DNA of 64,000 nt from an uncultured Candidatus Binatia bacterium (GTDB taxonomy: Bacteria; Desulfobacterota; Binatia; UBA9968; JAJDTQ01). Below the pieces are notes generated by a model, which was given only the letters and a program-made list of their open reading frames with translations, was not told the origin of the DNA and made no database searches. The position numbers were made by a program, and so were the translations under genes. Below, one piece after another: positions 4,096 to 43,088 of the stretch. Each line of letters opens with the position of its first letter. Within the stretch, counting starts at the first letter, position 1. The stretch lies in NCBI GenBank assembly GCA_965242525.1, contig OZ251459.1:2400001-2464000 (forward strand), in the 5' to 3' direction.

Positions 4096-4123
4096 AGGAG
4101 CCGGCCGTCCTCCCCGCCGCCCG

Positions 4124-20818: not shown

Positions 20819-21065
20819 GGGAGTCCCCGACCCGATGGCGGATACGACGGCGCCGCGGCCGTGACGGCTCGGAGACCCCGCAAAGCCTCCCCGGAGTCCG
20901 GTCAGCGGTACGGTCCGTATCGCGTCTGGATCGGATGCCTTTCGTCGATCAGGAGTTCTCCCGACTCTTGACCGCTTGGTGGCGGCCGCCATCGGGCAGC
21001 GTGTTCGCCCACGAGACCGGCCGTTTGAAGGCTCGCTGCTTTCCGCCACTCAGGGATGATGTTTG

Positions 21066-24000: not shown

Positions 24001-24190
24001 GAGACATCATTGCCAGTATCCGCTCCAAGCCCGATACACCCAGACGATGTACGGCCGACGAGAAGACGCTTATCGAGATCCGCTCCAGGGTCGAGAGCAC
24101 ATCAAGAACACCTATCTCAAGCGTGTCGATGCGCCGGTTGGCGCGAAGGCGTCGCTCAAGTGCTGGATGGAGTTGCTTGATGCCAACTGA
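21066..24190 (+). CDS. PLD-nuclease domain + SNF2-like helicase (probable natural C-terminus reached via a -1 frameshift at about 24096)
   Basis: FHAK...GSSNFT PLD motif; DGVGLGKT, DEAH, TATP, SEGLNLQ, QRIGRVDR; alternative frame from 24098 reads HIKNTYLKRVDAPVGAKASLKCWMELLDAN* and overlaps the next ATG. Confidence 0.8.
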
Positions 24191-27100
24191 CCACCGCACC
24201 GCGCTTGCCGCCATCCGGCGTTTCGATCAGTTGATCGCTTTTCTACGGGACGAGATGGATTGGCCGATTGCGAGCGGCGATTTCGAGGATCTGACCTTCG
24301 ACTACACTCCGGAGGAGCTCGGCATCAAGGTCCAGCATGCAGCAAAGATTCAGGAGATCAAGCGTCTTCGTCCGCTGGCTCCGAAACAGCCCTGGGGCGT
24401 GTTTTTCGTCAAGTTCGAGCCGAAGCGCCTGCCTGTGGTGGCGTTGCGCAGCATCCTGGGGCGAGTGGTGCTCAAGAAGCGTGCGTCAGTCAATGACGCG
24501 GAGCAGCCAACTTGGGCCATGGAGGATCTGCTATTCATCTCCAACTATGGCGAGGGAGAAGCTCGACAGATCAGCTTCGCGCACTTTGCGGCGCCAGCAG
24601 GCGGCAACAGACTGCCGACCCTCAAGGTGCTGGGCTGGGATGACCGCGCCACGCTTTTGCATCTGGACCACGTTGCGCGGGAGTTGACCCAACGCTTGGC
24701 GTGGCCCGATGACGAGGATGATGCCGATGCTTGGCGCGAACAGTGGCGGACTGCGTTTACCCTGATGCATCGGGAGACCATCAACACTTCGCAGGCACTT
24801 TCTGTACATCTGGCTGGTTTGGCCCGGTCCATCCGGGAGCGAATTCACTTCGTGCTGGAGATTGAGTCCGATAACGGTCGTATCACGGCGCTCATGAAGG
24901 CGTTCCGCATTGCCTTGATCCATGACCTCGATGAGGACGGATTCGCAGACATGGCTGCCCAGACAATCGCCTATGGCCTGCTTTCGGCACGCATCGCAGA
25001 CCGGGAGCGAGCGACTGTTCCTGATTTCACCGGCCAGATGAAGACCAATCCGCTTCTGCGCGATCTGATGGCGACCTTCCTGCATCTCTCTCATGGTGAC
25101 CATGGGACCAGGATCGATTTCGACGAGTTGGGGGTCGCGGATGTCGTCGAGTTGCTGGACCGTGCCAACATGGAAGCAGTGGTACGCGATTTCGGTGACC
25201 GCAATCCTCGCGAAGATCCGGTGATCCACTTCTACGAGAGTTTCCTGACGGAGTACGATAAGCGGAAGAGGTTCAAACGAGGCGTCTTCTACACTCCGCG
25301 CCCTGTGGTCTCCTACATCATCCGCTCTGTCGATGCCCTGCTGTGCGAGGACTTCGGCTTGGCTGACGGTCTCGCGGACACCTCAACTTGGGCAGAGATG
25401 GCCGAACGTGTGGAAGGTCTGATCATCCCGGAAGGCGTTTCGCCTGAACAGGACTTCGTGCAGATCCTCCATCCGGCATCGGGCACGGGCACCTTCCTGG
25501 TCGAGGTCATCGAGTTGATCTACAAGCGTTGCCAGGAAAAGTGGCAGTCGCAGGGTCATGACAAGGGGCGGATCGAAGCACTGTGGAACGAGTACGTCCC
25601 TCGACACCTGCTGCCGCGTCTCCACGGCTATGAACTACAGATGGCGCCCTACACCATCGCGCACCTGAAGATCAGCCTCAAGCTCTATGAGACCGGCTAC
25701 CGCTTTGGAGTAGATGAGCGAGCCCGAGTGTATCTCACCAATGCACTGGAGCCGGCGCAGGATTTCTCCGACCTGCTCGACTTCGCCGTCCCGGCGATAG
25801 CCCACGAAGCGCAGGCGGTGAACGAGGTAAAGGCTGGGCAGCGATTTACGGTGATCCTTGGCAACCCACCGTATTCCGGCCATTCTGCCAACAAAGGAAA
25901 GTGGCTTCGGGGTCTGCTGCATGGCTGCGCGGGCGACAGATCGGTTGAAAGCTACTTTGATGTTGATGGCAATCGCCTGAAGGAGAGGAATCCCAAATGG
26001 TTGAACGACGACTACACGAAGTTTATCCGTCTAGCTCATTGGCAGATCGAACAAACAGGCCAGGGGATCGTTGGTTTCGTCACCAACCACAGCTATCTGG
26101 ACAACCCTACATTTCGTGGTATGCGCGAAAGCCTCAGCGTCACCTTTCCCCGGATATTCCTGCTTGACCTGCACGGTAATACGAAAAAAAGGGAACGCAC
26201 GCCTGATGGTGGCAAAGATGAGAATGTCTTCGACATTCAGCAAGGGGTCGCTATCGGCCTGTTTGCAAGATCTGCGAACGAGGTGGCTACAGTAAACCAC
26301 GCTGACCTATGGGGTGGGCGCGAGCATAGCAAGTTTGTTTGTCTTCTTAATGACCATGTGTTGAGCACTCCATGGCAGACCTTGTCTCCTCAGTCTCCAT
26401 TGCACCTGTTCGTGCCACGGAGCGATAAGTTCCAGGATGAGTATGACTCTGGCTGGAGACTGGATCATGTCTTCCCAGTCCACCAAGTAGGCATGACAAC
26501 GGCACGTGACCGTGTAGTCATTGATTTCGAGGCTATACCTATTCTTGAGCGCGCCCGTCGCTTCCGTGACTCAAAGGAAGCGGATGTCCATCTTTGTGCA
26601 GAACTGGGGATTCCCATGAAGAAGGGATGGAATATAAGTAAGGCAAGAGAGCTTCTTCAGAGGGAGGATGATCTTGAGGACTTGATAAAACCAGTTCTGC
26701 GTCGTCCATTCGATGCGCGGTTGATCCTTTACCATGACTCACTCGTTTGGCGTACCATGAAGAAACTCATGGGTCACATGCTGGCCGGGAAGAATATCGG
26801 AATCATCACAACACGACAATGTAAGGACAATTGGAGTGCAATGGTATCGAACATGATTATTACGCACAAGGCATTGGACGCTTATGACATAAATTCACTG
26901 TTTCCCTTGTATATTTATCCACTAGATCTCGCCACGAAGACCAGCAGTCAGCGGACGCCTAATCTCGACTCGCAATTCACGCAGACCTTCAAGGCCGCCA
27001 TCGGTCTCGACTTGATCACCGATGGTGTCGGTAATCTTACTGGCACCTTTGGTCCTGAGGACATCTTCCACTACATCTATACAGTATGCTACTCTCCGGA

Positions 27101-28106
27101 GTACCGCCGCCGTTACGCTGATTTTCTGAAGTCCGAATTTCCCCGCATACCGTTGCCGGGCAACCGTGCTCTGTTTGCAGAACTCGTTCCGGTCGGAGCA
27201 CGTCTCGTCAAGTTGCACTTGATGGAGGCCGAAATCGGCAGTGCGGTTGCTCGTGTTTCTTTTCCGGTTTCAGGCACTAATCAAGTGGACAAGGTATCTT
27301 ACACAGCCGGGGATGGCCGATCGGGGCGTGTCTGGATCAATCGTGACCAGTACTTCGATGGCGTAGCCCCGGACGATTTCACTTTCACCATTGGCGGCTA
27401 TCGTCCAGCGGAGAACTGGCTGAAAGAGCGCCAAGGCCGCGTGCTTTCTCAAGACGATGTCCTCTACTACCAGAGGGTCATCACTGCCTTGGCCGAAACC
27501 CGAAGCAGGATGACCGAGATCGACGACGTCATCAGTCGGCATGGTGGTTGGCCAGACGCCTTTCAGCCAAGGAAGACGGAAACCTCGAGGGCCAGGATCA
27601 TTCCGTTCCGCCCTCGCAAGATCGAACCAGAACTGTCGAACCGCTTCGTCACCTGTGTGCCACTCATCCCTCTGCAAGTAGCTGCAGGTGGCTTCGGCGA
27701 TCCACAGCATCTTGAAGACGGAGACTTTTATGAATGGGTAGCCGTTGAGCCACGTCACCGTCTGCGAAAAGGCATGTTCGTTGCCCAGGTCGTCGGCAAG
27801 TCCATGGAGCCCTTGATCCCCGAGGGTTCCTGGTGTCTGTTTCAGTCGCCCGTTGAAGGCACGCGCCAGGGCAAGACCGTTCTGGTTCAACTGCGAGATG
27901 CGCTGGATCCCGAAACCGGTCATCGCTATACAGTCAAACGCTACACGAGTGAGAAGATCCAAGCGGACGATGCTTGGCGCCACACTTGCATTACCCTGAA
28001 TCCGGTCAACCCCGACTTTGATCCTATTGTCCTCACCTCGGACGACGAGGGCGACGTCAAGGTTGTCGCAGAGTTGGTCGAGGTTCTGGAAGGCACACAT
28101 GATTGA
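24180..28106 (+). CDS. Type ISP/IIG-like N6-adenine methyltransferase-specificity protein with C-terminal S24 peptidase-like domain
   Basis: DPVIHFYESFL, GVFYTP, (H)PASGTGTFL, GNPPY, DDYTKFIR, DENVFDIQQGV, FPRIP, IGGY; tail GKSMEP...YTVKRY. Confidence 0.85.
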   Translation: MPTDHRTALAAIRRFDQLIAFLRDEMDWPIASGDFEDLTFDYTPEELGIKVQHAAKIQEIKRLRPLAPKQPWGVFFVKFEPKRLPVVALRSILGRVVLKKRASVNDAEQPTWAMEDLLFISNYGEGEARQISFAHFAAPAGGNRLPTLKVLGWDDRATLLHLDHVARELTQRLAWPDDEDDADAWREQWRTAFTLMHRETINTSQALSVHLAGLARSIRERIHFVLEIESDNGRITALMKAFRIALIHDLDEDGFADMAAQTIAYGLLSARIADRERATVPDFTGQMKTNPLLRDLMATFLHLSHGDHGTRIDFDELGVADVVELLDRANMEAVVRDFGDRNPREDPVIHFYESFLTEYDKRKRFKRGVFYTPRPVVSYIIRSVDALLCEDFGLADGLADTSTWAEMAERVEGLIIPEGVSPEQDFVQILHPASGTGTFLVEVIELIYKRCQEKWQSQGHDKGRIEALWNEYVPRHLLPRLHGYELQMAPYTIAHLKISLKLYETGYRFGVDERARVYLTNALEPAQDFSDLLDFAVPAIAHEAQAVNEVKAGQRFTVILGNPPYSGHSANKGKWLRGLLHGCAGDRSVESYFDVDGNRLKERNPKWLNDDYTKFIRLAHWQIEQTGQGIVGFVTNHSYLDNPTFRGMRESLSVTFPRIFLLDLHGNTKKRERTPDGGKDENVFDIQQGVAIGLFARSANEVATVNHADLWGGREHSKFVCLLNDHVLSTPWQTLSPQSPLHLFVPRSDKFQDEYDSGWRLDHVFPVHQVGMTTARDRVVIDFEAIPILERARRFRDSKEADVHLCAELGIPMKKGWNISKARELLQREDDLEDLIKPVLRRPFDARLILYHDSLVWRTMKKLMGHMLAGKNIGIITTRQCKDNWSAMVSNMIITHKALDAYDINSLFPLYIYPLDLATKTSSQRTPNLDSQFTQTFKAAIGLDLITDGVGNLTGTFGPEDIFHYIYTVCYSPEYRRRYADFLKSEFPRIPLPGNRALFAELVPVGARLVKLHLMEAEIGSAVARVSFPVSGTNQVDKVSYTAGDGRSGRVWINRDQYFDGVAPDDFTFTIGGYRPAENWLKERQGRVLSQDDVLYYQRVITALAETRSRMTEIDDVISRHGGWPDAFQPRKTETSRARIIPFRPRKIEPELSNRFVTCVPLIPLQVAAGGFGDPQHLEDGDFYEWVAVEPRHRLRKGMFVAQVVGKSMEPLIPEGSWCLFQSPVEGTRQGKTVLVQLRDALDPETGHRYTVKRYTSEKIQADDAWRHTCITLNPVNPDFDPIVLTSDDEGDVKVVAELVEVLEGTHD

Positions 28107-28172
28107 GACGGGACGGACAAACAGCGTAGTGCTGTGGCCATTTCCAGAATTTTGTGCCATGTGAGATCACTC

Positions 28173-30317
28173 ATGGCAAGACTTGATATGGAGATGCAGA
28201 GAGAGATTGAACAGCCTTTTCGTCCCCGGGCAAGACTGCTGCAACTGCTCGGCGACGAACTGATTGGCAGTCCGCGTCTTGCGGTCTTCGAACTGGTCAA
28301 GAACGCTTACGATGCAGACGCTACCGAGGCTGTCGTCCGGCTTGACCTCGCTTCCGAGGATGACCCCAAGATAACCGTGACCGACAATGGCGAAGGCATG
28401 TCGCCAGATATCATACGGTCCGTATGGCTCGTCCCGGGACATGAGTACCGACAACAACAGCGCGAACGCCGTGAGCGTACCCCTGCACACCATCGACTTC
28501 CTCTCGGGGAAAAGGGTCTCGGGCGCTTTGCAGTACACAAGCTGGGAAACCACATCCGTCTGATTACCCGTGCGCAAGGCTCGGACGAATGCGTTGTGGA
28601 GATCGACTGGAATAAACTGATTGCCCAACCATATCTGGACGAGGCGCCTGTCAGGATACGCATGCGACCCGCGGAAATATTTACACAGGAAAGAACGGGA
28701 ACGCGAATCGAAGTCACTGAACTGCGGCCGCCTGCGTGGTCAAGACGCGAGGTGCGACGTCTTCACAACCAGATCACGTCGATCTGTTCTCCGTTCAGGG
28801 AGCCGGGATATTTTCGAGTGACTCTGGAGGTTCCGGGAAGGGAAAGTTGGATCGGGAATCTCCCCGATTTTGCAGCAATAGTGGAGCAGGCGATATGGAA
28901 GTTTACATTTTGGCTGGAAGATGGAAAATTTGATTGGGAGTACGAGTTTCGGCGACTTCCAGGGTTCGGTCTGGATGGTCGCAAGGTTTCGAAGGAGAGT
29001 GACAGACTGCAACTTCCATTGAGATCCGACGGTAACAGGATGGAAAGAAAAGTTATCGCCGACGAAGCAACTACTCGGGGAATCGGTCCAATTCTTGGAG
29101 AATTCCATGTTTTCGATCGTGATCGGGAAGTGCTTCGGCAACTGACGAATACTCGTCTGATGACCGAATATCTGGATGAAAACGGAGGAGTTCGTGTTTA
29201 TCGTGACGGTATTCGAGTTTACAACTACGGGGAACAGGGCGATGATTGGCTGGGTCTCGATTTGCGGCGCGTGAATATTCCGACTCGTCGTATCAGTCGT
29301 AACATTATCCTGGGTGCGATTCATCTCTCTCTGGATTTATCGGATAGACTGCTGGAAAAGACCAGTCGCGAGGGTTTCGTCGAGAACGACGCCTGCAACC
29401 GACTCAGGCAAATCGTGCTGGGGGCACTGGGGGCGCTGGAAGCAGAACGACAGAAGGACAAAGAGCAAATCAGACGGCTGGCAGAGAGCCCAAGGGACCC
29501 CGTGACCTCCCGGATCAAGAAACCGATTCAAGACTTGAGGGAAGCGCTTGCCGAACAGGAAGTGGCCGACAAATTTGAACCCTACGTAGCGAGGATCGAA
29601 CAGTATTACGACAACATGCAGGAGACGCTGCTTGCCGCCGGCATGTCTGGCTTGAATCTTGCGGTGGTGTTCCACGAGGTGGAGAGGGGCGTCCGCGTCC
29701 TGCATCAGGTCATACTCGAAGGCCGGGACATGGCGGGTGCCGCCAGCCAAGCTCAGGAGCTAGTGCATCTTCTCGACGGTTTTGCCACACTGTTGCGTCG
29801 AGACAGCAAGAAACGACACCATGCAAGTCGCCTCGGTCGGGCGGCGCGGCAGTTCAATAGCTTGCGGCTTCGCCACCACCGGGTCAAGTTTACCTGTCCG
29901 CTGCTTGATGGCGAAGGGGATTTTGAAGCGATCTTTTCGTTCAGACTGATGGTGGGAGCCTTGAACAACCTGATCGACAATTCACTTTACTGGCTCAGAG
30001 TCCGATGGCCAGAAGTCCCGAAGGAGGATGAAAGCTTTGAACGCCGTCTTTTCGTGGGCGCGACCCGGGATTTTGACGACGGACCGGCCATTATCGTTGC
30101 AGATAACGGGGAAGGGTTTCAGGGTGATGACCCAGAGCATCTTGCATATCCGTTTTTTACGCGTAAACCGGACGGCATGGGTCTTGGCCTCTACTATGCA
30201 AACCTTACCATGGAGTTACATGGGGGACGCTTGGTGTTCCCGCAACCGGACGAAGTCGACGTCCCTGATGGATATGACGGTGCTATTGTTGCCATGATTT
30301 TCAAGGAAGAAAAGTGA
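28173..30317 (+). CDS. GHKL (MORC/MutL-like) ATPase fused to a C-terminal histidine-kinase module
   Basis: ELVKNAYDADA, DNGEGM, GEKGLGRF; C-terminal VFHEVE H-box, NLIDNS, DNGEGF, PFFTRKPDGMGLGL. Confidence 0.88.
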   Translation: MARLDMEMQREIEQPFRPRARLLQLLGDELIGSPRLAVFELVKNAYDADATEAVVRLDLASEDDPKITVTDNGEGMSPDIIRSVWLVPGHEYRQQQRERRERTPAHHRLPLGEKGLGRFAVHKLGNHIRLITRAQGSDECVVEIDWNKLIAQPYLDEAPVRIRMRPAEIFTQERTGTRIEVTELRPPAWSRREVRRLHNQITSICSPFREPGYFRVTLEVPGRESWIGNLPDFAAIVEQAIWKFTFWLEDGKFDWEYEFRRLPGFGLDGRKVSKESDRLQLPLRSDGNRMERKVIADEATTRGIGPILGEFHVFDRDREVLRQLTNTRLMTEYLDENGGVRVYRDGIRVYNYGEQGDDWLGLDLRRVNIPTRRISRNIILGAIHLSLDLSDRLLEKTSREGFVENDACNRLRQIVLGALGALEAERQKDKEQIRRLAESPRDPVTSRIKKPIQDLREALAEQEVADKFEPYVARIEQYYDNMQETLLAAGMSGLNLAVVFHEVERGVRVLHQVILEGRDMAGAASQAQELVHLLDGFATLLRRDSKKRHHASRLGRAARQFNSLRLRHHRVKFTCPLLDGEGDFEAIFSFRLMVGALNNLIDNSLYWLRVRWPEVPKEDESFERRLFVGATRDFDDGPAIIVADNGEGFQGDDPEHLAYPFFTRKPDGMGLGLYYANLTMELHGGRLVFPQPDEVDVPDGYDGAIVAMIFKEEK

Positions 30318-31615
30318 TGCTTACCTCTCCAAGGGTCATAGTCGTCGATGACGAGATCGACCATCTGCAAGGTTTGGTACGGTGTCTGAATCGCCATGGC
30401 GCGGCGTGTCTCGGAATACACTTTACAGGAGACCCTTCCGGTATCAAGCCGTGCCCGGACGTCCGAATCATCTTCGCCGATCTGCACCTTGCCGGTCCTG
30501 CATCCAATCCAGATGCGTATTTTGCTACAATCGGCGGACTCCTCGAGGAGACGATCCAGCCGTCCGGTCCTTACTTCATCGTGTTATGGACCGTATATCC
30601 AGATCAGGCGTCGGCGCTGTTGAAGTTCCTCGAGGGTCGGCTTCAGGGTGTAACGAAACCCTTTGACATTCTCCCACTGGGAAAAGGCAGATACCTCGAC
30701 GAGAAGGGTCTGGTCAGGGACGAAGAAGCACTGATGGCGGAAATCCAGGCTATCACCGAAAGGCTTCCTCAAGTCGCTGCCCTTTTCAATTGGGAGCGTC
30801 GTGTGCTCGAAGCGACAGGGAAGACTCTGGCGTCGGTGCTTGAACTGGTGTCAGCAGAAGAAGTGGACAGACGGGCATCGGAGGTCGGCAGGATTCTCGC
30901 GAGCCTTGCAAGCGCGGCAGTTGGCCAGCCTCACGTGGAAGAGGATCGCTTTGGGGCCGTCAACGATGCACTCTTGCCAGTTCTCGCCGACCGGATTGCC
31001 AGTCTGCGCAAAACCGACAGCGACAGGGATGTCTGGGAGAAGGCTTTCGATTCTGTCGTTGTTTCACAAAACCTTTCAGTCCAGGTGAAGGCAAGGCTCA
31101 ATCAGTTGATTCACATCGACGTTATGGAACTCGGCCTCGTGAAAGGATCCGATCTTGGGGCCATCGTTCCACTGCCGGAATCATTTCGGAAAGACTTCGA
31201 GGACATATTTGGAATCGGCGAGAAGGAAGCAGCTAAAACGCAGTTTCACTGTAAGGATTTCAATCCGCAGAGTGATCGTTTTCGCTGGATATTGGTGCAA
31301 TCGCAGGCGGCGTGTGACCACGCTCAGACGCAGCCAGGATCGTTACCATACTATCTTGGCCTCGACCTTCCTCATGCCTGTGTCCAGAAGAATCGGACGC
31401 CTCCTGAGCATTTGTGGAGAACTCCCATATTCAAATTCGGTGGTGGAATTCGTGTTCTGCATGTCAGTGCCCGTTTCCCGACGGGAATGTCTCACGTTCA
31501 GGCTCAGAGTACCACACCGATATACCGACTTCGTGAACAGATCTTCAACCATATGATCTACAGACTCCACAGTCATGGTGCTCGTCCGGGCATGATCTCC
31601 TTTCCCGGGCGGTGA
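30317..31615 (+). CDS. Response-regulator receiver domain protein with unknown C-terminal domain
   Basis: VIVVDDE, IIFADLHL, IVLWT; ACDHAQ and YRLRE...RPG conserved-looking motifs; TGATG coupling to the kinase. Confidence 0.75.
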   Translation: MLTSPRVIVVDDEIDHLQGLVRCLNRHGAACLGIHFTGDPSGIKPCPDVRIIFADLHLAGPASNPDAYFATIGGLLEETIQPSGPYFIVLWTVYPDQASALLKFLEGRLQGVTKPFDILPLGKGRYLDEKGLVRDEEALMAEIQAITERLPQVAALFNWERRVLEATGKTLASVLELVSAEEVDRRASEVGRILASLASAAVGQPHVEEDRFGAVNDALLPVLADRIASLRKTDSDRDVWEKAFDSVVVSQNLSVQVKARLNQLIHIDVMELGLVKGSDLGAIVPLPESFRKDFEDIFGIGEKEAAKTQFHCKDFNPQSDRFRWILVQSQAACDHAQTQPGSLPYYLGLDLPHACVQKNRTPPEHLWRTPIFKFGGGIRVLHVSARFPTGMSHVQAQSTTPIYRLREQIFNHMIYRLHSHGARPGMISFPGR

Positions 31616-31662
31616 GTATCCCGCCGGTTACAGCGATCTTGCAGAGTATCTGGAACACATGG

Positions 31663-32616
31663 TCAGACGCTCGATACCAGTGACCGGACTACCGTTTCCA
31701 TGACCGGCGGACATACGCCATTTCCGAGAAGCCGTATCTGGTCGCGGCGTGAACCTGCGGGCAACCTGAAGTCGTCGCTGAACCCCATGGCCCGCTTGAG
31801 TTCGGGCACCTGTAGCATCCGCATCCTCGGCGCGCCACCATCCCAGTGGACGAGTGCAAACCGGTCCACGGTGGTGATCGTGCGGAGGGGACGGTCGAGA
31901 GGCTGCCAGCCCCCGCTTCCGTCATTGCTGTAATAGACGAGCAGGAAACTGGCATATTCGCCAAGGGCGTCGAATCCCCGTTTCGCCCTTTCGAGGGTGG
32001 CGTTCGCACGCTTCGCCTTGAACAGAGGAGAGGTTCTCCACGTGCCGGCCGGATCGAGTATGGACGCTGCCGTCTTGCGGCGCCCAGAGTACCTGTTTAG
32101 TGTCGGGTTTGGGGGATGCTCGCGGTCGCACACCAGAAACAACCTTTTTCGCGTCTGGGGGACCCTGAAGTCGGCCGCGTCAAAGGTCCGCTCGTCGAGG
32201 TGGTAACCCAGTTCCCGGAGATTCCTTTTCAGTTCCTCGTACCGTGACCAGGGACGCATGTAGATGACGTTCTCGAGAACGAGCCAACGGGGTTGGAGAA
32301 AGCGGGCATACTCGACCACGAGCATTGCGGTGGCACGGCTGGACTCGTCTCTCGGCGCCGAACCTTTGGCGCAGGTGTGATTGCGACACTCTGGCGACGC
32401 GAGCAGGAGGTCGATCCGGCCCACCGCGGCCTTGAAGCGGTTGATAGACAGGTCTTCCAGCCGGCTGGTGACGACGTGGGCTTCCGGGAAGTTTGCTGCG
32501 AAGGTAGTGGTAGCGGTCGCGCACATGTCGATTCCAGCTACGATCTCGACACCTGCCGCTCTTGCCCCGGCACTGCTCCCTCCTGCCCCGCAGAAGATGT
32601 CACATCCCCGTATCAC
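31663..32616 (-). CDS. dcm: C5 cytosine DNA methyltransferase
   Basis: DIFCGAGG, SPEC, ENV, PQTRKRLF, LGNGV; GTG start overlaps the vsr stop. Confidence 0.92.
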   Translation of the reverse strand: MIRGCDIFCGAGGSSAGARAAGVEIVAGIDMCATATTTFAANFPEAHVVTSRLEDLSINRFKAAVGRIDLLLASPECRNHTCAKGSAPRDESSRATAMLVVEYARFLQPRWLVLENVIYMRPWSRYEELKRNLRELGYHLDERTFDAADFRVPQTRKRLFLVCDREHPPNPTLNRYSGRRKTAASILDPAGTWRTSPLFKAKRANATLERAKRGFDALGEYASFLLVYYSNDGSGGWQPLDRPLRTITTVDRFALVHWDGGAPRMRMLQVPELKRAMGFSDDFRLPAGSRRDQIRLLGNGVCPPVMETVVRSLVSSV

Positions 32617-36408: not shown

Positions 36409-37788
36409 ATGGCGGACGTGACCGAGAACTTTCGCAAGCTCCCGCCCCAGAACCTGGAGGCGGAGGCGTCGATCCTCGGCGGCGTGCTGCTGGACAACGA
36501 GTCCATGAACATCGTGGTGGAGCTGGTGAAGTTCGACGACCTGTACCGGGACTCGCACCGCAAGATCTACCGGGCCATGGTGGACCTCTGGGAACGCAGC
36601 GAGCCGGTGGACCTCATCACCCTGAGCGACCACATGAAGGCCAAGGGCGAGCTGGAGTCCGTCGGCGGCTCCGCCTACCTGGCCGAACTCGCGACCCAGA
36701 TCCCCACCGCGGCCAACATCGCCCACTACGCGCGCATCGTGCGGGACAAGGCCATACTGCGCCACCTGATCCGGGCCTCCACCGACATCGCCACACGGGG
36801 GCTGGAGGAAAGGGGCGACGTCGATACCTTCCTGGACGACGCGGAACGCGCCATCTTCGACATCTCGGAAAAACGCATCGGGGCCTCCTTCGTGAAGGTC
36901 GGCGACGTCATGATGGACGCCATCAAGAAGGTCGAGACGCTCTACAACCGCAAGGAGATGGTGACCGGAGTGGCCACCGGCTACCGGGACCTGGACCTGT
37001 TGACCGCGGGGTTCCAGCCGTCGGACCTGTTGATCGTCGCGGGGCGGCCGGCCATGGGGAAGACCGCGTTCGCCCTCAACGTCGCGGCCAACGCCTCGCT
37101 GCACCAGGGCGTGGGCGTGGCGGTCTTCTCACTGGAGATGGCCACGGAGCAACTGGTGCTGAGGCTGCTTTGCTCGGAGGCGAGGGTGGATCATGCCCGG
37201 CTCCGCACCGGCCACCTGAAGGAAAGCGAGTTCCCGGAGCTGGTGACGGCCGCGGGGAGGCTCAGGGACGCGCCGGTCTATATCGACGACACGCCCGCGT
37301 TGTCGGTGCTGGAGGTCCGGGCCAAGACCCGGCGGCTGTTGCGGGACAAGTCCAGCAAGCTGGGCCTGGTGGTCATCGACTACCTCCAGCTCATGCGCGG
37401 CCACGGCGATTCGCCCAACCGCGAGCAGGAGATCTCGGAGATCTCGCGCTCCCTCAAGGCCCTCGCCAAGGAGCTGAGCGTTCCGGTGGTGGCCATCTCC
37501 CAGCTCAACCGGCGGGTGGAGGAGCGGAGCGACAAGCGCCCGGTCATGGCCGACCTGCGGGAGTCCGGCGCCATCGAGCAGGACGCCGACGTGATCATGT
37601 TCGTGTACCGGGACGATGCCTACGACCCGAAGAAGAACCCGGGCCTGGCCGAGGTCATCGTGGCCAAGCAGCGCAACGGCCCGGTGGACACGGTGCAACT
37701 CGCCTTCCTCAAGGAATACACCCGCTTCGAGGACTATTCGGGACGCGACGACGAGGGTTACTCGGACGCCGAAGCCGAGGAGTATTAG
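36409..37788 (+). CDS. dnaB: Replicative DNA helicase
   Basis: PPQNLEAE, AGRPAMGKT, FSLEM, IDYLQLM, SQLNR, DLRESGAIEQDAD, KQRNGP. Confidence 0.97.
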   Translation: MADVTENFRKLPPQNLEAEASILGGVLLDNESMNIVVELVKFDDLYRDSHRKIYRAMVDLWERSEPVDLITLSDHMKAKGELESVGGSAYLAELATQIPTAANIAHYARIVRDKAILRHLIRASTDIATRGLEERGDVDTFLDDAERAIFDISEKRIGASFVKVGDVMMDAIKKVETLYNRKEMVTGVATGYRDLDLLTAGFQPSDLLIVAGRPAMGKTAFALNVAANASLHQGVGVAVFSLEMATEQLVLRLLCSEARVDHARLRTGHLKESEFPELVTAAGRLRDAPVYIDDTPALSVLEVRAKTRRLLRDKSSKLGLVVIDYLQLMRGHGDSPNREQEISEISRSLKALAKELSVPVVAISQLNRRVEERSDKRPVMADLRESGAIEQDADVIMFVYRDDAYDPKKNPGLAEVIVAKQRNGPVDTVQLAFLKEYTRFEDYSGRDDEGYSDAEAEEY

Positions 37789-37790
37789 GA

Positions 37791-37819
37791 GGGTTTCCCC
37801 GCACGCGCGGGGATAGACT
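37791..37819 (+). CRISPR. Solitary type I-E-like CRISPR repeat R1
   Basis: GGGTTTCCCCGCACGCGCGGGGATAGACT, 29 nt, CCCCGC/GCGGGG stem; no regular spacers and no cas genes in the window. Confidence 0.65.
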
Positions 37820-38064
37820 CGAACCCGTCCGCACGCCGATAGCAATACGGGTTTATGGCGACGACGGGATATGTTTACTTGGGCGCGCCAATGGAGATCC
37901 TGCGGGAGAGTGGCCGGACTGGGCAGACGGGCGCGCCAAACGACGGCTACCCAGCCGGTATCCGGGGGAGCGTGCAACCAGCTATGTAGCCACGACTGGG
38001 CGGTTTTCAAGGCTTCGGAACTTGCCGGAATGCGGCCGGCCGTCTTCGGAGTAAGGGAAGGGAA

Positions 38065-38262
38065 ATGGCAAAGGGGAAACTGGTTTGGCATCGACACAAG
38101 CGGACCGAAGGCACGGCCGTTGTTTGCGGCGCCAGTGTCAAGCGCGCTCGGGCTCGGGTGGAAGCCTGGTCCGATGTTTCCTGCATGGTTTGCATACGCA
38201 AAGGGCATGAAAGCGGGGAATACCCTTATGGGCAAGCGCCCGAAGAGGACAACCGGCAATAA
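38065..38262 (+). CDS. Small phage-like protein with possible metal-binding H/C...CxxC residues
   Basis: Purine-rich RBS; 65 aa with WHRH...VCG...SCMVC. Confidence 0.45.
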   Translation: MAKGKLVWHRHKRTEGTAVVCGASVKRARARVEAWSDVSCMVCIRKGHESGEYPYGQAPEEDNRQ

Positions 38263-38337
38263 TGTATGTACTCCCTTACGATCACTTTGGTTCGATGGCA
38301 ACTATAATCGGAACCTTAACAGGTTCCGGCAGGCCGT

Positions 38338-38406
38338 GGCGCCGGAAGCATTCACGCTACTCTCATGCCTGCGGGCGAGCGCGGGGGTCGTGGCCCGCCC
38401 GGCGCC
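38338..38406 (+). ncRNA. Putative structured small RNA, copy 1 (69 nt)
   Basis: Terminal stem GGCGCCGG/CCGGCGCC; internal GCAT/ATGC and GCGGG/CCCGC hairpins; homologous to copies 2 and 3. Confidence 0.55.
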
Positions 38407-38408
38407 AC

Positions 38409-38750
38409 TCACCACTTTCCCTCTTGTCTATCGGACCTTCTTGAACCTTCGGCGGGCGACCCTGATGTCGCAATCTCGCCCGCGAAGTCGTCCACCAACT
38501 GAAAGGCGGCCTGCGCTCCTTGGACCGATCCGGCGACGGTCTCCAAGAACGCCTCCAGCGTCTGCGTGTCGACGCCGAGGACACGACTGACGAGGTTACG
38601 GACGCCGTTGCTGAGCGAAGAAGCCAGACTGGTCAATCCGACAGCCGCCGGCAGCGGGGACACCGACTTCGAGGCTCTGAGGACCTTCTTCAGCGATCCG
38701 GAGAAGTGATCGACGAAACGCAGGATCGCGCGCAGATTCAGGTCAGCCAT
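38409..38750 (-). pseudogene. Phage tape-measure protein 5' fragment 1
   Basis: MADLNLRAILRFVDHFSG... and LEAFLETVAGSVQGAQAAFQLVDDFA resemble a TMP N-terminus and tape-measure domain; truncated. Confidence 0.55.
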
Positions 38751-38786
38751 GGTTGACTTTCAGGGTGGGAGGCATATATTCACAGT

Positions 38787-38960
38787 ATGGATTTCATCAT
38801 CGGCATCGTGCTCATCTGGATCGCCGTGAAGCTCTGGAGGATCGCCAAGAAACTGGAGCGGGTGGTGGAGGTGATGACAAGCATCGATCCCGACGACCTC
38901 GATGCGACGTTTAGGGCGCTAGACGAAATCGACCCACCTGCGAAGTCCGCTCCGCATTGA
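38787..38960 (+). CDS. Small single-TM membrane protein (57 aa; moron 1), not in the ORF track
   Basis: MDFIIGIVLIWIAVKLWRIAKKLERVV...; TTGACT(38753)-N16-TATATT(38775), then 6 nt to ATG. Confidence 0.65.
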   Translation: MDFIIGIVLIWIAVKLWRIAKKLERVVEVMTSIDPDDLDATFRALDEIDPPAKSAPH

Positions 38961-39186
38961 GCGCCTCACTCGCCCCGTCCTCCATCCACATCAACCCGTC
39001 CAGGGTCTCCGGCGCCAGAGGCAGCAGCCCCGACAGGTCCAACAGCGCCCGCCCCCTGGGTTCAGTCGAGGCCCACGCCACCGGCCCGAAGCCGGCTCCA
39101 ATCAAGCCTCTCTCGGCCGACTTCACCGACTCTTGCGTCTGGTCCCGGCCACGGATGCTGATGAGCGCGGCGAGATTCGTGGCCAT
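38911..39186 (-). pseudogene. Chimera: tape-measure 5' fragment 2 joined to the 3' end of a DUF1799-like tail chaperone
   Basis: MATNLAALISIRGRDQTQESVKSAERGL followed by RALLDLSGLLPLAPETLDGLMWMEDGASEALN. Confidence 0.5.
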
Positions 39187-39220
39187 TGACTTGATTCCTC
39201 TGGTGCTCTATACGGGAGCC

Positions 39221-39439
39221 ATGAGAGTCAGGATCGACCTTGATTTGGGCGGGGTCCTTAGCTGCATCGGCGCCATGCTTTACGTCTTGGTGACCGGGAT
39301 CGTGCTGTTCAGCGCCGTGCTCCTCATGGCGGACGGCGTCCGCTTCTCGCTTCCCACCATCCTGATGCTGAGCCTGCTGGGCACGCTCGTCGTGCCGGCT
39401 GTGCGCTACATCGTCCGGTTCAATCGCTACGGCAGTTGA
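39221..39439 (+). CDS. Small two-TM membrane protein (72 aa; moron 2)
   Basis: Two hydrophobic segments; TTGACT(39186)-N17-TATACG(39209), then 6 nt to ATG. Confidence 0.65.
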   Translation: MRVRIDLDLGGVLSCIGAMLYVLVTGIVLFSAVLLMADGVRFSLPTILMLSLLGTLVVPAVRYIVRFNRYGS

Positions 39440-39573
39440 GCGCCGCGGCCGCGCCTTCCGCCATCCACATCAACCCGTCCAGCGTGTCCCGTTCCAGTGG
39501 CAGCAGGCCCGCCATGTCGAGGGTCGCTCGCACTCCGGGCCAGTCCAGACGCCAGATCACGTAGCCCGTCTGC
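39420..39573 (-). pseudogene. 3' end of a DUF1799-like tail chaperone, copy 2
   Basis: GYVIWRLDWPGVRATLDMAGLLPLERDTLDGLMWMAEGAAAALN*, homologous to 38960-39060 at DNA and protein level. Confidence 0.5.
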
Positions 39574-39578
39574 CCGAG

Positions 39579-39607
39579 AGGTTCCCCCGCACGTGCAGGG
39601 ATAGACT
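39579..39607 (+). CRISPR. Solitary type I-E-like CRISPR repeat R2
   Basis: AGGTTCCCCCGCACGTGCAGGGATAGACT, 29 nt. Confidence 0.65.
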
Positions 39608-39629
39608 CGGCGCGGACCGGAGGTCCGTT

Positions 39630-39877
39630 CCGGTCCCGCGGGTGAGGTCGAATACGGCCTCGGCCGCCTCCTGGGTCGGCGTGGCCTGCAACGCGGTGTC
39701 CGCAATGCGACCGATCCGCCGGATGATGCCTATGCCGCCCAGGACGGTCAGGGCGTCGGCGCAGTACTTGCCGATGTTGCCGGCCAGGCGGCGGAAGCGC
39801 TTGTCGGCCGAATCCGTCCCCGCCTTGGTCCTGTCCAAGGCTTCGAGGACCGCCCCGAATCTTATGGGATCAGCCAC
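39630..39877 (-). pseudogene. Phage tape-measure protein 5' fragment 3
   Basis: GTG start MADPIRFGAVLEALDRTKAGTDSADKRFRRLAGNIGK...; same geometry as fragments 1 and 2. Confidence 0.5.
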
Positions 39878-39913
39878 TTGACACCAGTTCCTTCGATGGC
39901 TATTGGGATAGGC

Positions 39914-40093
39914 ATGGCAACCATCGCCGAGTTCGTCCTGCGGGTAGGGTTCGCCGTGGCGCTGATCTTCGCCTCGCCGTTTCTGCTGCTCTTCATCTTG
40001 AGCTACCAGGAACATCCCGAGTTGGCCTTGATGTCCGGCGGAATAGCTGCATGGCTGCTCATGAAGATCTTCGTGCCGCGGCGGTATCAGTGA
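39914..40093 (+). CDS. Small two-TM membrane protein (59 aa; moron 3)
   Basis: MATIAEFVLRVGFAVALIFASPFLLLFIL...; TTGACA(39878)-N17-TATTGG(39901), then 7 nt to ATG. Confidence 0.65.
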   Translation: MATIAEFVLRVGFAVALIFASPFLLLFILSYQEHPELALMSGGIAAWLLMKIFVPRRYQ

Positions 40094-40284
40094 TCCGCCT
40101 CATGTGACCTTCCGGTTCAGCGCATCATCGACCAAGACGAAGTACTCCAGCCCAACAAACGTCCTCCAGGACGGACCCGAGACCTACCTGCTCGCGCTGC
40201 ACCGCATGGAGGAATACATCCTCGCCGCCGCTCGCCGGAAACCGAAGAAAATCAGGCAGGGAAGTCGAAAAGCTGTTGAGATGA

Positions 40285-40355
40285 GGCGCTGGGCGGGCCA
40301 CAACCCCCGCGCTCGCCCGCAGGCATGAGAGTATTGCGAATATGCTTCCAGCGCC
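40285..40355 (-). ncRNA. Putative structured small RNA, copy 2 (71 nt)
   Basis: GGCGCTGG/CCAGCGCC terminal stem; promoter TTGACA(40391-40386)-N17-TAGGTT(40368-40363) 7 nt upstream. Confidence 0.6.
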
Positions 40356-40477
40356 AGCCCGGAACCTAACCCGGACCGCCGCAGTTGTCAATCAGAAGGT
40401 TGGCTTCTTGCGGCTTTTGTGTGGGCAGGATTTACGGCGTAGGTACGGCGAGGTTGAGGGAAGGAGTCGTCTACCGG

Positions 40478-40635
40478 GGAAGGCGTGGCCTTCGACCCCT
40501 AGCCGGGGCAGGAGCGGTTGGAGTGGCGGCGCTCCGGCAGGGTATTGCTACGTGGGAGTCGAGATCGACCCTCTATTTGCAGAGGTGGCTAGGCAGCAGC
40601 TATCTCTGATTGACAATGGCGACGGCCTGGTTTAG
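40478..40635 (+). pseudogene. Degenerate C-terminal fragment of a beta-class (N4/N6) DNA methyltransferase
   Basis: Across frameshifts: VAFDP-LAGAGAVGVAALRQG-YCYVGVEIDPLFAEVARQQL. Confidence 0.55.
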
Positions 40636-40645
40636 GTTCCGGGCT

Positions 40646-40711
40646 GGCGCTGGAAGCAGCACTACTCTCATGCCTGCGGGCGAGCGCGGGGATTGCGTCC
40701 CGCCCAGCGCC
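40646..40711 (+). ncRNA. Putative structured small RNA, copy 3 (66 nt)
   Basis: GGCGCTGG/CCAGCGCC stem; promoter TTGACA(40610)-N17-TAGGTT(40633) 7 nt upstream. Confidence 0.6.
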
Positions 40712-40775
40712 ACTTCCTCGCTTTTCAAGTTTCTCCTGCTCTCCCACCTTCTTCCATTTCCGGCGAGCGGCTCGG

Positions 40776-40804
40776 AGGTTCCCCCGCACGTGCGGGGATA
40801 GGCC
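40776..40804 (+). CRISPR. Solitary type I-E-like CRISPR repeat R3
   Basis: AGGTTCCCCCGCACGTGCGGGGATAGGCC, 29 nt. Confidence 0.65.
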
Positions 40805-40864
40805 TTTGGTTGCCGGGTCCGTGCTCGGACGTCGAGGACGTATTCGGAGTTTGCGGCCGGGAAT

Positions 40865-41296
40865 CTACGCTGCCCGGTCCTCGACCACGAGGCTGCGTCC
40901 GATGGCTCGCAGGGCCTTCTCCACTTGGCTGATGTGAGAGCGGTGGCCGGGGTTCAGCAGCTTGCGGACGGCGCCCTCGCTCAGCCCCAGGCGAGCGGCG
41001 AGGGCGACCTTGGTGACGCCTTGGCTGCGCATCGCCGAATAGAGGGCGACCTTGGCCGCGACGATGGGAGGAACCGCGACGAGTTCCTGGCCTTGGGCAG
41101 CGGCGCTTGGAGCCGGGACGTCCTCACGGCCATGAACGTAGGCGCTCAAGGCGGCCGCCAAGGCATCCTCGGCCATAGTCAGCGCCTCGGCCCGATCCTC
41201 GCCGCAGGTGAGCGCTTCAGGCACGTCCGGGAAAGAGACGGAGAAACCGCCGCCGTCCGCCTCGGGAGCCAGCACGCAGGGGTAGGCGTAGCGCAT
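40865..41296 (-). CDS. hicB: HicB family antitoxin with C-terminal HTH
   Basis: MRYAYP...GGFSVSFPDVPEALTCG...EAL.MAEDAL; VTKVALAARLG...RKLLNP. Confidence 0.88.
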   Translation of the reverse strand: MRYAYPCVLAPEADGGGFSVSFPDVPEALTCGEDRAEALTMAEDALAAALSAYVHGREDVPAPSAAAQGQELVAVPPIVAAKVALYSAMRSQGVTKVALAARLGLSEGAVRKLLNPGHRSHISQVEKALRAIGRSLVVEDRAA

Positions 41297-41457
41297 CAGA
41301 AGTCCTCCTTCGGGATGTCCAGTTGCTTCAGCATGGCCTGAAAGGCCCCAAGCTTCAGTTCTCCATGTTTGACGGTCGTGCGACGGTCGCCAACGTAGAG
41401 CACGCCATGGTTGCCCTTCCCGTGGCGTGGATCGAAACGGAACGGCTTTCCGACTTT
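41296..41457 (-). pseudogene. hicA: 5'-truncated HicA toxin
   Basis: FRFDPRHGKGNHGVLYVGDRRTTVKHGEL..GAFQAMLKQLDI*; TGATG overlap with hicB; in-frame TAA immediately upstream and no start codon before the motif. Confidence 0.7.
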
Positions 41458-41493
41458 TTAGAAGGCTTTGGCTACGGGAAGGGGAGAACCACC

Positions 41494-41748
41494 GTGACGG
41501 AGTTTGAAGCCGCAACGCTCGCACTACAGCAGCAACAGCTTTGGGCCGCTCTCGCCGTCCCCCTTGTCGCCCTCATTGTCGGAGCCGGGCAGGTCATCGT
41601 CGTCTCTGTCGGTATCCGGGTCATGCGGCGCACATCGGATCAGAGGGAGAAGCGCGAAGACGCCCGCCACGCCGAAGCGATGGAAGCGCTGCGACAGCAG
41701 GCCGAAGCCTTGCGCGTCCTCATCGAACGGACCGCGCCTCGCCGGTAA
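41494..41748 (+). CDS. Small TM + coiled-coil protein (paralogue A)
   Basis: GGGGAG RBS and GTG start; TM segment then REDARHAEAMEALRQQ...LIERT. Confidence 0.65.
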   Translation: MTEFEAATLALQQQQLWAALAVPLVALIVGAGQVIVVSVGIRVMRRTSDQREKREDARHAEAMEALRQQAEALRVLIERTAPRR

Positions 41749-41961
41749 CGGCCGGCGCCGCCGGGGAAGGGAGACAGCGCTACGGGAACCACCGGCCGCT
41801 ACGGCCCACGGAGACGGAAACCGAAGTAGCGGCCATGCCTGCGTTGGCAGGTCCGCCGCGGAAAACAAACCCTGCATTCGTCTCTGTCGGGGGAGTCGCA
41901 GACGGGTCGCGCCGCGCAACGATGGCCCCGGATTCTGCGGGCGGTTCCGGTGCGGCGGCGG

Positions 41962-42300
41962 TCATTGGCTGTCTCTCTTCGGCGATGTTCTCTCGATCAG
42001 GGTCTCCATGCCTCTGATGAGGCCCCGGAGAGATTCGTCCTGCTGCCGGAGAGATTCGCCCTGCTGCCGGAGCGCTTCCATGCTTTCGGCATGGTTGCTC
42101 CGGAGCACTTCCATGCTTTCGGTATGGTTGCTCCGGAGCGCTTCCATGCTTTCGGCATGGCGCTGGTCTTCGCGACGCGCCCGTTCCTCCGTGGACTGGC
42201 GCATCTGCCGCAAGCCTATGAGGATGGCCGTAACCGATCCCAAAGCGGCGACGGCGCTGATGCCCCGGAGAACGGTGTTGGCAAGCTCGTAGTCCGTCAT
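41962..42300 (-). CDS. Small TM + coiled-coil protein (paralogue B) with internal tandem repeats
   Basis: GGGAG RBS; REDQRHAESMEALR...LIERT; 33-bp x3 and 21-bp x2 in-frame repeats. Confidence 0.7.
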   Translation of the reverse strand: MTDYELANTVLRGISAVAALGSVTAILIGLRQMRQSTEERARREDQRHAESMEALRSNHTESMEVLRSNHAESMEALRQQGESLRQQDESLRGLIRGMETLIERTSPKRDSQ

Positions 42301-42471
42301 GTCCGTCTCCCTTCCTGCGATTGATAACACGCCCTGCATGGAACCACCACATGATCTACGGGAAACCCTGAACAACGGCCCGTTCGTCCTGAGCGAAGCG
42401 AAGCCGAAGGACGCGCTTGGCGAATCGAGAGTGCGCCAGCGTAGCGGCGAAAGCGCCCGCGGCGGACCCCG

Positions 42472-43088
42472 CTACGGCGCCAGGTCCAGGACGCGCCGGA
42501 CCCGGGTGGACACGTCGTTGCCGCGGGTCAGGTAGCCGATCATGGCCGCGGCGTCGGCGCCGCGGCGCCAGGCTTCGGGCGCGTTGTCCGCGGTGACGCC
42601 GCCGATGGCGACGATGGGGATGCGCACCCGGCGTCTTACGGACTCGAGCATGGGGAGGCCGCGGGACGAATAGCCGGTCTGCTTGGTTCGGGTGGCGAAC
42701 AGGGGGCCGAACCCGATGTAGTCGGCGCCGCCCTGTTCCGCCTGCTCCGCCTGGGCGAGGCTGTGGGTGGAGACGCCGACGAGTTTGCCGCCCATCAGGG
42801 GCCGGGCCGCTTCCAGGGGCAGGTCCTCCTGTCCCAGGTGCACCCCGTCGGCGTCCGCGGCCAGGGCGATGTCCAGCCGGTCGTTGACGATGAAGAGGCA
42901 ACCGGCCCGTGCGGTCCGTTCCCGCACGGTCAGGGCGGTGCGCAGGAACTCGCCTGCCGGCCGGTCCTTCAACCGCAACTGGAGCACCGAGACGCCGCCG
43001 GCGAGCATGGCGTCCACCACCCGGACCAGCGGGCGGCCCCCGGTCTGGTCCCCGTCCGCGATGGCGTAGAGCCGCGACCGCAGGCAGC

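Follow-up and report, generated by a model that had tools for sequence, protein, structure and literature searches.

A stack of three truncated phage tail-gene junctions, each with an intact small membrane-protein gene, beside solitary CRISPR repeats in a Candidatus Binatia genome

Introduction

In bacteriophage HK97, the moron gene 15 sits between the chaperone gene and the tape-measure protein (TMP) gene (PMC3594210). Its product, gp15, a small protein of the inner membrane, stops injection of the genome, an effect that depends on the tail region of the phage, and its expression from the prophage is established. A related arrangement is described here for a 64,000-nucleotide (nt) stretch of a Candidatus Binatia genome of 4.23 Mb (G000:C1:2400001-2464000), hereafter called the window. 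Between positions 38409 and 40170 of the window, one geometry is seen three times, head-to-tail. Each cassette consists of a minus-strand 5' fragment of a putative TMP gene, a closely apposed plus-strand promoter-like site and then an intact open reading frame (ORF) for a small membrane protein. An original prediction, made from the letters of the window, had described this triplicate geometry and had cited HK97 gp15 as the precedent. The precedent was stated correctly, and the geometry is borne out by the start codons, the ORF coordinates and the promoter layout.

The comparisons reported below show three truncated copies of the junction between the T part of the tail chaperone and the TMP gene. 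They come from a genus-specific, siphovirus-type phage lineage, and each copy carries an intact small membrane-protein gene. The stack sits in a variable island that elsewhere holds defence genes, and it is in direct contact with solitary type I-E CRISPR repeats.

By analogy, the cassettes resemble HK97 gene 15 in the chaperone-TMP slot, in the small membrane protein and in a promoter of its own, the promoter and its expression being predicted for the window. However, no sequence similarity to gp15/YebO was seen in a Pfam scan. The small genes of the window run against the direction of the tail operon, apparently without a leader. Furthermore, the cassettes are detached from a prophage and form a three-deep stack beside CRISPR repeats.

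Phages and plasmids can carry solitary repeat units that mimic host repeats, many of them located shortly downstream of a promoter, and viral integration into arrays via solitary repeats has been mentioned as a proposal (PMC10651486). The window resembles such RNA anti-CRISPRs (Racr) in having isolated type I-E repeats of the genus, without cas genes nearby, in DNA of apparently mobile origin. It differs in that three direct copies bound phage-gene fragments, the host lacks a cognate system and no acr-like neighbour was identified.

Results

Organization of the stack

The comparison set consisted of 27 other genomes of the same genus (G-numbers) and 95 genomes from other families of the order. 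The proteins P0002-P0011 came from metagenomic protein searches. The minus-strand ORFs with TMP-like starts are designated stub1, stub2 and stub3, the plus-strand small ORFs mem1, mem2 and mem3, and the T part of the G/GT tail chaperone is designated T. Feature coordinates are collected in Table 1.

The arrangement is no artefact of assembly, as sequences from other studies also carry the stack. A 1711-nt contig from another study spans 38357-40069 with 75 differences and 4 gaps, an identity of approximately 95.6% for the stack, and pieces of the stack in a further sequencing run are identical to the window.

The TMP-like starts (ATG at 38750, ATG at 39186 and GTG at 39877) had been predicted to abut or overlap the TTGAC of a plus-strand -35 box, and all three lie 0-3 nt from it. 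Read along the plus strand, the complement of the TMP start is followed by TTGACT, TTGACT or TTGACA, then after 16-17 nt by TATATT, TATACG or TATTGG, and after a further 6-7 nt by the ATG of the small gene. Since the -10 box is so close to the ATG, the mRNA of the small genes is probably leaderless or near-leaderless. A loose promoter pattern, written from the cassette sites themselves, gave six matches on both strands of the whole genome, half of which were the cassette sites. When a divergent CAT/CAC was added to the pattern, three matches remained genome-wide, all of them in the stack.

Behind these sites lie the intact hydrophobic ORFs of 57-72 amino acids (aa) that had been described, mem1-mem3, all of which have predicted transmembrane (TM) segments. 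The 3' end of every small ORF is overlapped by a minus-strand ORF that converges on it, and in two of the three cassettes the ORF converges on the 3' end of a T gene. Stub2, 91 aa as a whole ORF, is an in-frame fusion of a 28-aa TMP start to a 54-aa T end, and the third junction is out of frame. Codon-position GC content is coding-like in the stubs (GC1>GC2<GC3) and in the small ORFs, and the antisense frames have the shadow pattern.

Identity of the tail-gene fragments

Direct family scans of the stubs gave weak matches to PHROG tail/TMP families (E 0.01-0.06) and no match in Pfam. However, the claim that they are TMP-like was upheld by a profile check through relatives. An exhaustive HMMER search with stub1 found three true relatives, and the alignment with one of them, P0009, has an E value of 2e-24. 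P0009 itself matches the TMP family phrog_1716 at 1e-18 and Pfam TMP_3 at 4e-7, although the latter score, 30.4 bits, is under the 41-bit cut-off. Stub1 is TMP-like up to about residue 90 (38481). Stub3 matches the TMP of G024, and a stub3 motif is 62% identical to residues 132-152 of the G010 TMP (E 0.003). The 28-aa start of stub2 is not significantly similar to the G010 TMP start (E 7.5); its assignment rests on position and on the MATNLAAL motif, which resembles other TMP starts.

Across the cassettes and their relatives, the TMP pieces measure 28, 52, 62, 89, 90 and 125 codons, those of 52, 62 and 125 codons coming from other genomes. No full-length TMP of the stub1 type was found among 1.84 billion representatives, and a word-indexed search for longer stub1 relatives found none. 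Neither did stub1 and stub2 match any of 50,697 phage records by tblastn, nor stub1 any of the 27 other genus genomes. No match was confirmed in viral contigs (IMG/VR) scanned with stub1-3 and alignment A1, or in species-representative genomes (GTDB) and JGI metagenome contigs scanned with alignments A1 and A4. Two candidates were rejected: a weak stub1 match at G000 1,927,6xx, which sits among haem-synthesis genes and is attributed to chance, and P0011, a protein of 906 aa with leucine-rich repeats that was a spurious match of the stub1 search.

The window holds the last ~52-54 codons of T twice (39423-39579 and 38941-39102). These are the two minus-strand 3' ends that had been called homologous, and they are 51.7% identical over 58 aa (E 1.7e-9). 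Four metagenomic proteins of 54-67 aa, P0002-P0005, are homologous to stub2 at 72-80% identity but cover only its residues 29-82. These proteins match the C-terminal half of phrog_680 (positions 38-97 of 98) with E values of 1e-3 to 0.16, and the ORF at 39420-39560 matches the same half at 0.062. Furthermore, tblastn with the T frame of G010 as query matched the window T fragments with an E value of 2.9e-5. The phrog_680 family is, judging by gene order, the T part of the G/GT tail chaperone, because in G010 and G024 its frame overlaps the end of G and precedes the TMP gene; phrog_680 E values for these frames are 2.3e-8 and 6.9e-4, respectively. With phrog_680 and a profile of the present sequences, loci were found in three other genomes of the genus (G010, G024 and G043) and in none of the 95 genomes from other families. 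A third tail-chaperone stub had also been proposed at ~40101-40183 on the minus strand. It is not supported, as its E value against the T profile is 26 and the resemblance is only by eye, so that the prediction of three chaperone stubs stands for two T ends. Taken together, the interpretation of the stubs as phage tail-gene fragments is supported by these sequence comparisons.

The chaperone-TMP slot in prophage tail modules

In G010, a chaperone gene (phrog_569/313) and a T frame overlap in an A8 run at the end of G. Next come a reverse-strand ORF of 69 aa with two TM segments and a TMP ORF of 466 aa (phrog_27166, 1.8e-47; Pfam TMP_2, 1.3e-9). G024 has the same order with a reverse 72-aa, two-TM ORF, and then a minor tail protein and a J-like fibre. 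The slot therefore does host a small membrane gene in the modules of G010 and G024, as had been predicted, and it does so on the reverse strand. The promoter layout is common to all five sites, three in the window and one each in G010 and G024. The order G, overlapping T frame and TMP, with an A-run at the G/T overlap, is that of a lambda-type G/GT and TMP module. The window differs from it in retaining only the last ~52-54 T codons and the first 28-90 TMP codons, without G, a tube gene or the remainder of TMP.

Properties of the small membrane proteins

The three membrane proteins had been said to differ from each other. Pairwise comparison of mem1, mem2 and mem3 detected no similarity, which fits different source phages. 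The metagenomic homologue of mem2, P0007, has the promoter stretch conserved upstream, and on the other strand the same upstream region conserves a TMP start of the MATNLAAL type, as in TMP fragment 2. The GC content of the small genes is 0.57-0.62, versus 0.63-0.71 in the flanking T and TMP pieces, at all five loci. GC at the second codon position is 0.36-0.40, typical of membrane proteins, and the hydrophobic codon bias of such proteins may contribute to the low GC content.

Sixteen listed differences between strains fall in 38409-40093, two of them intergenic and three counted in two overlapping frames. Four are synonymous and one is non-synonymous in the small ORFs, whereas three are synonymous and nine non-synonymous in the stubs. 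All three listed mem1 single-nucleotide polymorphisms (SNPs) are synonymous in the mem1 frame, and 8 of the 9 listed for stub2 change the protein.

CRISPR repeats in contact with the cassettes

The 29-nt repeats R1, R2 and R3 are the sole copies in the genome and are direct, with spacings of 1788 and 1197 nt. The consensus was taken from the 61-nt-period arrays of G022 (87 repeats) and G014 (59 repeats). A matching repeat occurs in regular 61-nt-period arrays of 7 of the 27 other genus genomes, and some match in 10 of the 27. The array of G022 adjoins Cas2 (I-E type), Cas1 and Cas6e genes. In G000, no Pfam match to Cse1, Cas6e or Cas7e was found, and tblastn with Cas6e, Cas1 and Cas2 of G022 gave none; the genome has two other cas1 genes. 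Neither was there a regular I-E array in G000, the spacings not being ~61 nt with 32-nt spacers, nor any similarity in the island to the leaders of the G014 and G022 arrays. The genomes of G010 and G024 have no copies of the repeat.

On either side of R2, the flanking homologies stop no more than a few nt from the repeat. The same junction recurs in P0009 (173 aa), an in-frame fusion in which 125 aa of TMP N-terminus are followed by FPRTCGDRL, the translation of the sense strand of the repeat, and then by the C-terminal end of T. In P0008, 62 aa of TMP N-terminus are followed by a repeat-like peptide, and P0010 is cut after 52 aa by an element resembling repetitive extragenic palindromic (REP) sequences. 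The contact between CRISPR repeats and phage fragments is a new feature of the locus.

A second locus, in G002 (L028 = G002:C1:880000-890000), has five degenerate type I-E-like repeats at 3959, 4150, 5290, 5530 and 5832, with spacings of 191, 1140, 240 and 302 nt. They are interleaved with the structured element described below and with small ORFs, including that of a 93-aa membrane protein, and the locus looks like a second irregular array of the kind in the window. In G023, the island at the same site (L013 = G023:C1:2783000-2790000) has a single repeat at 5608-5636, the stem of which is kept through paired C-to-T and G-to-A changes.

Gaps of kilobase size in the arrays of G014 and G011 were considered as phage cassettes and rejected, as they are insertions of the IS21 insertion sequence (IS) family into the repeat. 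This element (istA/istB) lies inside a CRISPR repeat in L015 (G014; 3882-6094) and L030 (G011), the two being 88% identical. The insertion points differ slightly between the two genomes, which suggests a preference for the repeat. Contig joints from 37818 to 40767/40774 were likewise rejected as deletions of the island; with 24-31 letters between their two sides, these joints are repeat-spacer-repeat stretches from real arrays of those samples.

The dnaB-thiE island

The stack lies in a 4.7-kb island between dnaB, which ends at 37788, and thiE (Pfam TMP-TENI), which ends at 42472. The island is absent from G004 and G006, which have a short spacer only between the two genes. G012 and G019 have only short repeat elements there, and G007 has other sequence downstream of dnaB. 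At the same site, G023 has an MmeI-family restriction-modification enzyme (939 aa) and an intact hicAB pair, to which the hicB/hicA region of the window is 88% identical at the nucleotide level. In the window hicB (40865-41290) is whole and hicA (41296-41455, minus strand) is a 35-codon ORF matching only the C-terminal half of HicA. DNA homology to the G023 hicA continues upstream of this ORF, so the toxin gene looks broken.

A 110-170-nt element flanks the stack on both sides, its two copies (38321-38466 and 40227-40396) being inverted relative to each other. The element starts with a promoter-like TTGACA-17-TAGGTT and has a core, GGCGCTGG...CCAGCGCC, that encloses a GCGGG...CCCGC hairpin. 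Its stems are conserved with two compensatory changes, one per stem across the copies. Further copies occur at G000:C1:667214-667293 and in L028 (G002), L013 (G023), L008 (G018) and L009 (G009), and in G002, G023 and the window the element often adjoins a solitary CRISPR repeat. No Rfam family matched: across the whole window none reached its gathering score, and in 37700-42500 there was no match even at E<=1. The element may be an unnamed small RNA gene or a miniature inverted-repeat transposable element (MITE).

The island resembles an integron or a defence island in having small cargo genes between structured repeats at a fixed spot, with differing defence cargo (MmeI and HicAB in G023; small membrane proteins in G002). 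It differs from an integron in that no integrase was seen among the island ORFs scanned, IntI itself not having been searched for, and in that cassette ends vary and orientation is not fixed.

Several other features were recorded. A 37-nt stretch just left of element copy 1 (38284-38320) is 89% identical to the terminal inverted repeat (TIR) of an IS630-family element of 1109 bp, which has four identical copies in G000 (one at G000:C1:433183-434291). The ORFs at 41323-41748 (+) and 41962-42375 (-) encode small inverted paralogues that have a single TM segment and, at the C-terminus, a '...REDARHAEAMEAL...IERT' helix. Related DNA recurs at several further sites in G000, the irregular array of G002 has a 93-aa ORF of similar kind, and no family was found for the paralogues beyond a weak ZorA-like match (E 0.006). 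G000 has several hundred copies of a REP-like element of ~60 nt, one of them at 42361-42420. A 65-aa ORF located between R1 and the stack (38065-38262, plus strand) with a good ribosome-binding site and cysteine pairs has a weak match to phrog_13952, a family for which no function is known (E 7.8e-4), and may be a further phage-derived piece. Neither the remaining ORFs of the island nor the cargo of G002 had a match in PHROGs. Outside the island, ~11 kb of the window (21000-32600) has a GC content of 0.50-0.60 versus 0.67 for the genome and no high-GC3 ORFs, and may be a foreign island.

Table 1. Features of the stack and its surroundings (window coordinates).
Feature	Position	Strand	Evidence or remark
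R1, 3 nt after dnaB stop	37792..37820	+	27/29 identical to array consensus
Element copy 1, structured-RNA core and tail, left bracket	38321..38466	+	preceded by IS630-TIR-like stretch
TMP fragment 1, first ~90 aa	38481..38750	-	48% identity over 92 aa to P0009; ORF continues to 38409 through non-TMP sequence
mem1 promoter-like site, TTGACT-16-TATATT	38753..38780	+	10 of 12 consensus matches, strict scan
mem1, 57 aa	38787..38960	+	one predicted N-terminal TM segment, acidic tail
T' fragment, last 54 aa of T domain	38941..39102	-	stop lost, ORF continues to 38911; 72-80% identity to P0002-P0005
TMP fragment 2, 28-aa TMP start, in-frame fusion with T'	39103..39186	-	position and promoter layout; MATNLAAL start
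mem2 promoter-like site, TTGACT-17-TATACG	39186..39214	+	translated stretch IDLIPLVLYTGA identical in P0007
mem2, 72 aa	39221..39439	+	two predicted TM segments; P0007 69% identical, full length
T fragment, last ~52 aa, abuts R2	39423..39579	-	tblastn with G010 T frame E 2.9e-5; phrog_680 E 0.062
R2, exactly between T fragment and TMP fragment 3	39580..39608	+	26/29 identical to consensus
TMP fragment 3, first 89 aa, GTG start	39609..39877	-	BLASTP vs G024 TMP E 1e-4 over 94 aa
mem3 promoter-like site, TTGACA-17-TATTGG, weak -10	39878..39906	+	failed strict scan
mem3, 59 aa	39914..40093	+	two predicted TM segments
Claimed third chaperone 3' end, 27 open codons ending ...ALNRKVT	~40101..40183	-	E 26 vs T profile: unsupported
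Element copy 2, inverted, right bracket	40227..40396	-	promoter reads into minus strand of stack
Element copy 3, TTGACA-17-TAGGTT and structured core	40605..40771	+	ends 6 nt before R3
R3	40777..40805	+	26/29 identical to consensus
hicB and hicA remnant	40865..41455	-	island cargo shared with G023

Discussion

At the level of anatomy, the reading of the cassettes as phage morons is largely supported. A probability of roughly 55% is assigned to the whole reading, in which morons from a phage tail junction are kept as likely entry blockers after a capture associated with CRISPR repeats. A phage lineage infecting the genus would carry, at its T/TMP junction, an opposite-strand small membrane gene with a sigma-70-type promoter, and this gene could be expressed from a silent prophage through its leaderless mRNA. 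In G000 only the junctions survive, as 28-90 TMP codons and ~52-54 T codons around each small gene. If the analogy with gp15 holds, the small proteins would be located in the inner membrane and would block DNA entry by phages with a matching tail or TMP type. Such superinfection exclusion is plausible. Selection would then keep the small genes, the tail-gene stubs being debris. That differently truncated cassettes recur argues either that the small gene is under selection or that capture is directed at the T/TMP junction. The excess of synonymous differences in the small ORFs is a hint of selection.

The weakest step is the entry of the cassettes, which may have occurred by recombination of phage DNA with a former CRISPR array, followed by deletions. 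Three routes were considered. In the first, phage DNA would have recombined with two spacers of the former array, as spacer-mediated recombination of phage into CRISPR arrays has reportedly been seen in a staphylococcal study. The locus is similar to such an integration in that phage DNA takes the place of a spacer and its ends coincide with those of the repeats, but no matching spacers were found among 143, and normal arrays hold only IS21 insertions. The second is integration through repeat homology, along the lines of the proposal in PMC10651486, and the third is an unrelated arrival of Racr-type repeats.

Several observations weigh against the main reading. With regard to the small genes, a strict consensus promoter scan accepted only the first of the three sites, and no terminator-like site was found 3' of the small ORFs in a scan of the window sites. 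The proteins mem1-mem3 have no match to any Pfam, PHROG or PADLOC family. In Pfam at E<=1 this holds save for chance-level matches of mem1 to domains of unknown function (DUF), and no YebO-type match was seen, YebO presumably having a Pfam model; PADLOC gave no match for the stubs either. Since the stubs too are without internal stops, the intact small ORFs might only reflect the youth of the fragments, and the hint of selection comes from a subset of the strain differences, with 273 more outside the list. With regard to the prophage modules, one of the three other T-bearing loci, G043, has a different protein behind the T frame and lacks both a reverse ORF and a TMP there. Moreover, TMP is broken up into several ORFs in G010 and in G024, so these modules would be prophage remnants or carry sequence errors. 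With regard to capture, the repeat is sense to the tail genes in P0009 and antisense in the window, and both the A/B junction and the left end of the stack are without a repeat. For the A/B junction, a better fit is a Campbell-type integration via homology in T or TMP and a subsequent deletion. The 143 spacers of G022 and G014 gave no match in the island or in the G010 prophage, only short chance matches being seen in G000 and in the G010, G024 and G023 loci, and canonical arrays of the genus hold only 32-nt spacers and IS21 insertions.

The strongest alternative, still unlikely, is that the stack is neutral debris. Phages would have recombined repeatedly with a resident homologous fragment or a former array, deletions would have followed, and the small ORFs would be intact as the events are recent. 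The stop-free stubs agree with this, as do the weak matches of two of the three promoters and an island full of junk (the IS630-end remnant, MITE-like elements, the broken hicA and REP copies). However, three independent truncations, with TMP cut at 28, 89 and 90 codons, all retain one and the same junction of 0.5-0.7 kb, in which the small ORF is complete. More truncated forms (52, 62 and 125 codons) exist elsewhere, with no full-length TMP of the stub1 type in the representatives searched. Furthermore, most of the listed SNPs in the small ORFs are synonymous, most of those in the stubs are non-synonymous, and the stack is kept at ~95.6% identity in the contig of another study.

It is also possible, and quite unlikely, that the small proteins are functional but act otherwise than by blocking entry. 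Candidates are abortive-infection or toxin peptides that depolarise the membrane and are restrained by antisense transcription from the stubs, or other lysogenic-conversion factors. Peptides of 59-72 aa with two TM segments fit many small toxins, and the neighbouring cargo is a toxin-antitoxin pair. Every small ORF is overlapped at its 3' end by a convergent minus-strand ORF, and the promoter of element copy 2 reads into the minus strand of the whole stack. The small proteins have no similarity to a known toxin or defence family, however, and the sole characterised gene of the slot, HK97 gp15, is an entry blocker (PMC3594210). The conserved pairing with the TMP start in prophage modules also argues for a tail-related role.

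A bolder extension of the entry-blocker reading, and a long shot, is that the locus is a cas-less archive delimited by CRISPR repeats. Chaperone-TMP segments of about half a kilobase from past phages would have been inserted precisely at repeat ends, in either orientation, and kept for their promoter and for a small membrane protein active against phages of the matching tape measure, the locus storing exclusion genes instead of 32-nt spacers. Such archives would also be present in the sources of P0008 and P0009, and perhaps in G002.

The repeats could instead have no link to cassette capture, being Racr-type RNA anti-CRISPRs or remnants brought to a hot spot by mobile elements. Solitary repeat units on phages and plasmids, often behind a promoter, are documented (PMC10651486). 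All three repeats are sense to upstream transcription units, R3 being 6 nt after a promoter-bearing element, and the G023 copy keeps its stem through a compensatory change. This is improbable, as G000 has no I-E Cascade, Cas1, Cas2 or Cas6e, the G010 and G024 genomes have no repeat copies, and the insertion of a Racr gene does not account for the way in which tail genes are cut precisely at the ends of R2 and of the P0009 repeat. The weakest proposal, that truncated TMP N-termini or T domains, including TMP-T fusions, act as decoys that poison tail assembly, is suggested by the in-frame fusions in stub2 (91 aa) and P0009 (173 aa) and by defence through tail-assembly interference (PMC11364771 and PMC10884400), and is very improbable given that 8 of the 9 listed stub2 SNPs alter the protein, that the third junction is out of frame and that no stub promoter was found except the distant element promoter.

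If the small proteins do exclude phages, as in the entry-blocker reading, this bacterium would have kept only the useful gene of several past phages and stacked these genes at a hot spot. The locus would then provide three pairs of exclusion peptide and tape measure for the study of the DNA-entry block, the mechanism of which is still unknown for HK97 gp15. The conserved, reverse and apparently leaderless gene at the TMP start is a simple mark by which such genes may be found in other prophages. Moreover, the exact contact between a repeat and a gene-sized phage fragment in two independent sequences raises the question of whether arrays or repeats can capture whole genes and not only 32-nt spacers.

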